Shown here: positions 41,879-42,349 of the stretch, in pieces
How the letters are laid out: the number at the start of each line of letters is the position of its first letter
Position numbering within the stretch: position 1 is the first letter of the stretch
Origin: Oligoflexales bacterium
GTDB lineage: Bacteria > Bdellovibrionota_B > Oligoflexia > Oligoflexales > JAPPIL01
Length of the DNA: 64,000 nt
NCBI GenBank assembly: GCA_965215515.1
Contig: OZ244057.1
Span: 1,344,001-1,408,000, forward strand
Direction of reading: 5' to 3'
The notes under the pieces: model-generated
What the model was told of the DNA's origin: nothing
The model's database searches: none
Seen by the model: the letters and a program-made list of their open reading frames with translations, nothing else
Made by a program: the position numbers and the translations under genes

Positions 41879-42349
41879 ATGCGTATCGACACTACCACCG
41901 CCATCGTCAAGCGAGGCCTCGTGTGCGTAGCCAGCGCACTGCTCGCCCTCGTCGCTGTACTGGTCTTGGCACGTACCCTGCCCGCTGGTCTGCCGCAACA
42001 TCTGCATGATTTTCAAGTAGAGATCGCAGGGGTTGATTACGGAGTCTTTGACCGCGTCGGTGGCATCGCACGAGTCGCGTTGGCAGGTGGGGAACAAAGC
42101 TACTACGAAGTTACTCTGGAGCGGCATTTTGTCGCACATCCTTCCCTTTCCTTCTGGGCGGAACGTCAACGCGCCAGGCATACCCATACATCAGACATCG
42201 CGTTGGTAACGCATGACCGTGGAGGCGAGCAACGCTACTTGCTCAAGCGTTGTCAGCCGCTGTCGTGGTCGGTTGAAGCGGCGAACACCGCCTCAGGCGG
42301 GTATCATGAAACTGTCGTGCTGGCCGTACAAGCTCTCGGTTCTTCCTAG
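41879..42349 (+). CDS. Phage/CIS tail-tube-like protein (T4 gp19/Afp1-type) with N-terminal hydrophobic segment
   Basis: FQVEIAGV..GVF..VGG; VTLERHF...LSFW; DIALV...RYLLKRCQPLSWS...ETVVLAV pattern typical of gp19-like tubes; preceded by KRGLVCVASALLALVAVLVLA. Confidence 0.62.
   Translation: MRIDTTTAIVKRGLVCVASALLALVAVLVLARTLPAGLPQHLHDFQVEIAGVDYGVFDRVGGIARVALAGGEQSYYEVTLERHFVAHPSLSFWAERQRARHTHTSDIALVTHDRGGEQRYLLKRCQPLSWSVEAANTASGGYHETVVLAVQALGSS

Follow-up and report, generated by a model that had tools for sequence, protein, structure and literature searches.

Phage tail tube proteins of the T4 gp19 type (PF06841), which include the Afp1, Pvc1 and Cis1 tubes of extracellular contractile injection systems (eCIS), are cytoplasmic, lack signal sequences and have their genes next to those of the sheath and the baseplate. 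Hcp (TssD, PF05638) is another tube fold recruited by cells, and it leaves the cell by way of a secretion system of type VI (T6SS), not Sec, and has no hydrophobic N-terminus. To our knowledge, descriptions of the tail-tube fold are confined to machines assembled in the cytoplasm, namely phage tails, tailocins, eCIS, T6SS and gene transfer agents. Here we analyse an open reading frame (ORF) at 41879..42349 (+) of a 64,000-nucleotide stretch from an Oligoflexales bacterium (assembly GCA_965215515.1, contig OZ244057.1, positions 1,344,001 to 1,408,000 of the forward strand), hereafter the window. An earlier note on this DNA, made from the sequence alone, had taken the product for an orphan tail-tube-like protein, domesticated and exported. 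Our findings make it probable that it is a domesticated, extracytoplasmic envelope protein of the tube fold that is not part of any contractile machine.

Comparison with the described systems

The window protein resembles the gp19-like tubes in its whole-domain fold, in its sequence homology and in the size of its domain. Unlike them, it has an N-terminal export or anchor segment and comes from a genome without sheath or baseplate matches, and its family is vertically inherited, present in one copy per genome and paired with a lipoprotein. Hcp gave the best structural alignments with VIA-align, with Hcp5 of Bacteroides fragilis (7yw0_A; Z 10.2, root mean square deviation 3.6, 105 aligned residues) ahead of Hcp1 of Burkholderia pseudomallei (Z 9.5). 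Unlike the Hcp systems, the genome of the window has no PF05638 or TssC match, and the affinity of the protein in sequence is to PF06841 and not to Hcp, a family that its Pfam scan did not match.

A third set of relatives consists of nine metagenomic PF06841 proteins that bear signals (P0126, P0129, P0131, P0132, P0135, P0137, P0139, P0140 and P0143) and that are the nearest outgroup matches of the profile of the window family. In these, PF06841 domains scoring 39.9-192.9 bits follow a hydrophobic N-terminus or a lipobox-like motif, but, unlike the window family, they have no PAGLP linker. They are unannotated, save for one cluster member named 'phage tail-like protein', and they raise the prospect that exported tube domains may extend beyond the Oligoflexales. 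One of them, P0137, carries two PF06841 domains in tandem. A metagenome scan with a PF06841 protein (P0146) gave 54 loci of about 32-54% identity; among the 48 inspected, the six edge or partial ones being omitted, none had a hydrophobic N-terminus and all started directly at the domain.

A search of full-text literature found no Sec-exported or membrane-anchored tube proteins. PMC11937823 describes ordinary eCIS tube genes in Myxococcota. The fold and the superfamily are already known; in the literature that we found there is no description of a targeting out of the cytoplasm, of vertical conservation throughout an order in the absence of a sheath, or of the lipoprotein partner.

The tube-like domain

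The ORF begins with an ATG at 41879 and encodes 156 residues, followed by its stop codon. Its frame on the + strand is open from a GTG at 41792 to 42349 and holds a further ATG at 41822, the alternative start of the gene caller (175 residues, P0002). The start at 41879 is the best fit to the starts of the homologues and is preferred because, in an alignment of 26 family members, most sequences have their N-terminus 8-15 residues ahead of the hydrophobic run; the longer start would merely extend the cytoplasmic tail. In order, the product consists of MRIDTTTAIVKRG, the hydrophobic run GLVCVASALLALVAVLVLA, RTLPAGLP and a beta-rich domain. The gp19/Afp1 tube pattern that the earlier note had read in this domain is there in full, since FQVEIAGVDYGVFDRVGG, VTLERHF, LSFW, IALV, YLLKRCQPLSWS and ETVVLAV are all present. 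The tail-tube fold itself is supported by hhalign with PF06841 proteins, AlphaFold2 (AF2), Foldseek and VIA-align.

The only Pfam match of the window protein is PF06841 (E 0.029), with 14.6 bits where the gathering cut-off is 28.2, and in NCBIfam it matches TIGR02241 alone ('phage tail region protein'; E 0.027). No PHROG match was found for it, and the ESM Atlas gave sub-threshold leads only (0.89), to clusters that partly bear PF06841. Among the 26 aligned members, 15 match PF06841 at E<=1, the best with 5.8e-8, and the divergent relative P0072 scores 29.1 bits. Comparison by hhalign of the family with 11 PF06841 proteins gave a probability of 99.7% and an E-value of 3.6e-26 over 112 columns, i.e. 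the whole domain, a result that is partly circular in that the 11 proteins, all of which pass the PF06841 cut-off, were drawn from the lower-ranking matches of the profile search made with this same family. The motifs F.VEI(D)G and C.P.SW are common to both sides of this alignment; the second includes the near-invariant Cys125, which lies within CQPLSW in the window protein and has its counterpart in the CWPxSW of the PF06841 proteins. Homology to PF06841 at the level of the superfamily is supported by these profile comparisons. A PF06841 search of the whole genome missed even the gene in the window, so searches of genomes with the family model overlook the tube-like family.

The structural comparisons point the same way. 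The AF2 model, built on the alignment of 26 sequences, has a predicted local distance difference test score (pLDDT) of 83.3 and a predicted template modelling score (pTM) of 0.71, with a helix at residues 5-32 and a beta domain at 43-155. All of the 13 Foldseek matches to the PDB at E<=1e-3 are tube proteins or Hcp, comprising eCIS tubes (Afp, PVC, AlgoCIS, Anabaena, Streptomyces), phage tubes (812, A-1(L)) and Hcp; the leaders are the Afp baseplate chain 6rao_F (6.3e-5), AlgoCIS 7aeb_Y, phage 812 8q01_G and Hcp 8gra_B. VIA-align returned 27 chains with Z>=8, and 30 of the 31 top rows are tubes, Hcp or related tail-tube-fold proteins that span model residues 41-156. The tube matches have Z of 8-10 with 105-118 aligned residues, as for the PVC tube 6j0b_a (Z 9.4, 113 aligned). 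The window protein thus has the tail-tube/Hcp fold, a beta-sandwich that bears one helix and a long beta-hairpin, in a domain of residues 43-156 (42005..42346). The comparison with tail tubes that the earlier note had proposed as a test of its idea ended in similarity and did not refute it.

It could be argued that an unrelated small beta-sandwich protein of the envelope converged on this shape, since the identity of the structural matches to solved tubes is only 8-19% and middling Z scores are common in VIA-align searches. That would have to be reconciled with the PF06841 matches of more than half of the members, with the whole-domain hhalign result and its common F.VEIDG and C.P.SW motifs, and with the fact that all but one of the top VIA-align rows are of the tube or Hcp type. 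We consider convergence extremely improbable.

The N-terminal export or anchor segment

The earlier note had also reported basic residues followed by a hydrophobic stretch of about 20 residues, and this description holds. Residues 1-12 (41879..41914), with R2, K11 and R12, form a basic n-region that is predicted to be cytoplasmic. It is followed at residues 13-31 (41915..41971) by 19 uncharged residues with a mean Kyte-Doolittle hydropathy of 2.85, which fall within the model helix. The linker RTLPAGLPQHL (41972..42004) comes next, in which A36 is invariant, and G37 and P39 nearly so, in the alignment.

This layout is a property of the family. In all 26 members there is an uncharged run of 14-20 residues whose last residue is A, S, G or T, and it is followed in the aligned members by a linker of the type [RKQH]-x-x-P-A-G-L-P. 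The 12 residues preceding the run contain 2-4 Lys or Arg in 22 of the 26, and the other four, with 0-1, have short N-termini. In every one of the 26 homologues the segment keeps its sequence register and sits inside the ORF, so that the homologues do not start downstream of it and the conservation that the earlier note had wished to see checked is indeed found. A search with the family profile of 1.84 billion cluster representatives gave only 121 proteins at E<=1e-3, and 91 of these reach E<=1e-10, from which it follows that the tube-like family is small. Of the 119 representatives outside the alignment, 91 have an N-terminal window of 15 residues with a mean hydropathy of 1.8 or more on the same scale; the remaining 28 are mostly N-terminally truncated or borderline, and include three canonical, signal-less PF06841 proteins and two unrelated long proteins.

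In several divergent members (P0072, P0096, P0115, P0119, P0124, P0132 and P0139) the anchor-like segment is replaced by a lipobox-like L-x-[AS]-C motif, judged by eye against the lipobox consensus; the window protein has no lipobox. Because the type of signal varies, and because a lipobox is only sensible on an exported protein, this variation argues strongly that the tube-like domain acts outside the cytoplasm. The charges read from the flanks of the segment in the window protein (net +2 on the N-terminal side, about 0 on the C-terminal side) mean that, by the positive-inside rule, the topology should be N-in/C-out. A31 lies at a possible -1 position, which gives a putative signal peptidase I site, VLA31|R32, and the segment may be either the h-region of a Sec signal peptide or an uncleaved signal-anchor. 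The earlier proposal of export to the periplasm or the surface is therefore upheld in so far as the export or anchor segment is conserved, while a location at the surface gains nothing beyond the export itself.

Orphan status and distribution across the order

The genome, a single contig of 2,180,710 bp with a completeness of 93.9%, has one copy of the tube-like family. None of Phage_sheath_1 (PF04984), GPW_gp25 (PF04965), VipB/TssC (PF05943), Phage_GPD/VgrG (PF05954), T6SS_HCP (PF05638) and Baseplate_J (PF04865) is matched there at E<=1, so the gene is an orphan with respect to these components of a contractile injection system (CIS), as had been supposed. Nor did a Pfam scan of 50 non-overlapping ORFs of the window reveal any phage-structural family besides the weak PF06841 match of the tube-like ORF itself, which bears out the earlier impression that no phage genes lie nearby.

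The named relatives belong to the Oligoflexales, and Oligoflexus tunisiensis Shr3 is among them. The distribution was surveyed in 131 genomes of the phylum, 95 from the order of the window and 36 others. The tube-like family is present in 89 of the 95 and, as a weak single occurrence, in one of the 36. There is one match per genome except in G003 (3) and G042 (2), where the matches are split fragments, and a local hidden Markov model search found an extra, diverged copy in G045. Only 11 of the 95 genomes carry sheath genes, as against 89 with the tube-like gene, which indicates that this gene is uncoupled from contractile systems. Its retention in single copy across the order supports the domestication that the earlier note had suggested.

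These observations bear on the view that a prophage or CIS locus has degraded here and left an ordinary tube protein of the cytoplasm, with a hydrophobic N-terminus that stems from a mis-called start. The weak PF06841 match and the resemblance of the fold to phage and CIS tubes would suit such a remnant. But the hydrophobic segment stands in register within the ORF in all 26 homologues, no other tail genes are found in the genome or the window, and conservation is vertical across the order, in addition to which the protein has no PHROG match. This interpretation has next to no chance of being right and is, in practice, refuted.

Gene neighbourhood and the lipoprotein partner

The tube-like gene is flanked by core genes, as the earlier note had stated: Pfam places mutL upstream (39951..41783, +; HATPase_c_3, DNA_mis_repair and MutL_C), 95 bp away from the ATG at 41879, and downstream it finds a murD-like ligase (42404..43783, +; Mur_ligase_M 1.5e-17, MurD-like_N 1.4e-8). 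A scan for promoters and terminators found no promoter-like site in 41500-42700, and its sole terminator-like site is inside mutL, not intergenic. The idea that relatives would share this mutL-X-murD arrangement failed, as neither MutL nor MurD adjoins the gene at any of 37 other loci, both genus mates included. The setting is confined to this genome and is without functional meaning.

What is conserved instead is the order TPR - RidA - tube-like gene - lipoprotein gene, where the upstream genes for the tetratricopeptide repeat (TPR) protein and RidA are kept everywhere but in the genus of the window. Directly 3' of the tube-like gene, 29 of 30 distinct loci have an ORF of 390-500 residues, hereafter the partner, and the exception is truncated where its contig, 2.2 kb long, stops. 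The two genes are separated by a gap of 31 bp in O. tunisiensis and probably overlap by 44 nt in the genus mates. By profile search, the partner, which is roughly 430 residues in length, is present in 83 of the 95 order genomes; copies lie at 6502-7863 (+) of locus L004, the O. tunisiensis locus with the tube-like gene at 6001-6471, and at 6416-7756 (+) of locus L001.

Most of the 17 complete partner sequences have a signal peptide with a lipobox-like end (..LLGC, ..ASC or ..VGC), and the alignment contains five invariant cysteines and one nearly invariant, as expected of a disulfide-bonded periplasmic lipoprotein. The partner has no Pfam, NCBIfam or PADLOC match and no convincing PHROG match. 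Its AF2 model (454 residues, pLDDT 81.9) predicts two beta-sandwiches, one at each terminus, with a helical bundle between them. The best VIA-align score is Z 7.3, on the helical bundle, and the C-terminal sandwich draws generic matches of the immunoglobulin or carbohydrate-binding module type; no convincing relative was found in the PDB and no function can be read from the model.

It was also considered whether the tube-like protein is a factor of defence or exclusion, i.e. a periplasmic mimic that caps or jams the incoming tubes of phages, T6SS or CIS. A tube-fold domain located where incoming tubes arrive could bind their ends, and periplasmic proteins of superinfection exclusion do exist, an example being T4 Spackle (PMC7650644). 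The single copy, the stable synteny and the presence in 89 of 95 genomes are unlike what would be expected of a defence gene. Such genes are patchy in distribution and borne on islands. In addition, PADLOC gave no family at E<=0.1 for the window protein, its Oligoflexus homologue or two partner proteins, and there are no defence genes in the flanks that were examined. We think this explanation quite unlikely.

Partner loss and constraint on the tube-like gene

In the genome of the window the slot of the partner is occupied by the murD-like ligase. The partner profile has no match in the single contig at E<=10, and a search with a single partner protein matched only an overlapping frame of the tube-like gene itself; the lipoprotein partner has been lost here. 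Besides this genome (G000), six others have the tube-like gene and no partner (G013, G049, G011, G012, G003 and G077). The gene is followed by Ffh in G013 and by a different putative lipoprotein of 247 residues in G049. In G011 and G012 the contigs stop within about 650 bp of the gene, which makes the absence of the partner insecure, the copy in G003 is weak and diverged, and in G077 a contig edge runs through the gene. The absence is secure in G000, G013 and G049, all of them small genomes of 1.9-2.2 Mb. The 247-residue ORF of G049 (L040, 1404-2147, +), with a lipobox-like LASC and no match to the partner profile, might have replaced the partner or be the partner itself, shortened and strongly diverged.

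An ORF of 34 codons, MKLSCWPYKLSVLPSLCAALLCCSCDLTSSSDGW (42306..42410, +), overlaps the tube-like gene at its 3' end, and its ATG corresponds to the one at which the partner probably starts in the genus mates. The encoded peptide is hydrophobic and contains Cys; the ORF ends where murD begins and may, on weak evidence, be a relic of the lost lipoprotein gene. After the stop codon, the nucleotide identity to the genus mates (30/57 and 31/57) does not clearly exceed that of the unrelated sequence beyond (23/56 and 25/56), and the idea of a surviving partner relic was rejected on this ground.

It is conceivable that the tube-like gene is a decaying leftover, the function of which went when genome reduction deleted the partner and which looks intact only for lack of time. 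Apart from the missing partner, the gene's surroundings have been reshuffled compared with the genus mates, the genome measures 2.18 Mb as against about 3.0-3.1 Mb in these, and in the partner-less G011 and G012 the match to the gene is much weaker (E 1e-14 to 1e-18). However, the ORF is intact and keeps all 30 residues that are invariant in the family alignment, of which the window protein is itself a part, its ratio of nonsynonymous to synonymous substitution (dN/dS) is roughly 0.11-0.14, and G013 and G049 have likewise retained the gene without the partner, so that retention is likelier than chance survival. We therefore regard a leftover as unlikely. As the gene is intact and constrained without its partner, it must have a role of its own.

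Proposed role

The domesticated, extracytoplasmic envelope protein that we favour would be a descendant of a T4-gp19/PF06841-type tail tube protein that was re-targeted out of the cytoplasm. Its basic N-terminus and 19-residue hydrophobic helix would direct it to the Sec route in an N-in/C-out orientation, placing the tube-fold domain of 115 residues in the periplasm, either tethered to the inner membrane or released after VLA31. The gene would normally be co-transcribed with that of the disulfide-rich lipoprotein of about 430 residues, and the two products would act together in the cell envelope; from their pairing, we infer a physical interaction between them and an envelope-structural or carrier role. 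In the reduced genome of 2.18 Mb, the lipoprotein gene is deleted and the tube-like gene stands between mutL and murD.

Several findings speak against this picture. The Pfam score of the window protein lies below the gathering cut-off, and a sequence-profile search of the PDB with the family alignment gave three matches at chance level only (E 0.09-0.17; leucine-rich-repeat proteins and an aminotransferase). The run of 19 residues is long for a cleaved signal peptide and also suits an uncleaved anchor, so that the protein may be either anchored or secreted. The assignment to the periplasmic side follows from the positive-inside rule and from the nature of the partner. The whole-chain Foldseek search with the partner model had no match at E<=1e-3, and the partner was lost in at least three small genomes (G000, G013 and G049), which implies that the pair is not obligatory. 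Finally, the dN/dS values relative to the two genus mates, 0.135 and 0.113, are rough since dS is saturated (1.55 and 2.06), and they average in the time before the partner was lost.

By analogy with its relatives, the tube-like domain may oligomerise into rings, although we hold this only tentatively. A hexameric ring of this kind would be tethered to the membrane through six N-terminal helices. Complex prediction with four copies of residues 36-156 scored 0.01, where the mark is 0.42, and makes no call on oligomerisation. It is a rather doubtful, if attractive, possibility that a Sec-exported, membrane-tethered periplasmic ring and the lipoprotein together constitute a new envelope structure, acting as a conduit, a scaffold or a carrier. 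If true, this could be a sheath-less conduit, a scaffold from the inner to the outer membrane or a periplasmic carrier in the manner of Hcp, and cells would have recruited the tail-tube fold here independently of T6SS and eCIS.

The extracytoplasmic assignment would mean that the tail-tube fold can go through Sec and persist for long, without a sheath, as a one-copy gene of the housekeeping type, opening a niche that is functionally new to a very well-studied fold. The idea can be put to a direct test in O. tunisiensis Shr3, which has both genes and is a named isolate whose genome has been published. The tube-like and lipoprotein genes also make a clean marker pair at the level of the order, and the repeated loss of the partner, and not of the tube-like protein, in small, probably host-associated genomes amounts to a natural experiment on which half of the pair is indispensable.

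Other features of the window

The window contains core genes for the isoleucyl-, alanyl- and glutamyl/glutaminyl-tRNA synthetases, MurG, CoaBC, CoaE, TsaD, SMC, FabI, SppA and Mip. Apart from these it encodes, among other things, three ankyrin-repeat proteins, an Ion_trans channel and a secretin. The ankyrin-repeat proteins lie at 1702-2832 (+), 8820-10235 (-) and 32079-33551 (+), a PLD-like protein at 30526-31815, the Ion_trans channel at 45317-46276 and a ceramidase-like protein at 62908-63645. These ankyrin, PLD-like, ceramidase-like and Ion_trans genes suggest a eukaryote-associated lifestyle of the organism.

A lone protein with HSDR_N and RAMA domains, associated with restriction enzymes, is encoded at 25822-27006 (+), and no methylase or restriction subunit is recognisable among the scanned ORFs that neighbour it. 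Between mip and mutL, the stretch of about 1 kb at 38903-39950 contains only an Arg-rich ORF of 176 residues (39095-39625) with no Pfam match and may be degraded or non-coding DNA. MutL itself has a long linker rich in Pro, Thr, Ser and Ala at about residues 340-420, between DNA_mis_repair and MutL_C. The genes murG (7183-8247, +) and murD are 34 kb apart and both lie outside a dcw cluster; in this genome, the cluster of cell-wall genes is broken up.

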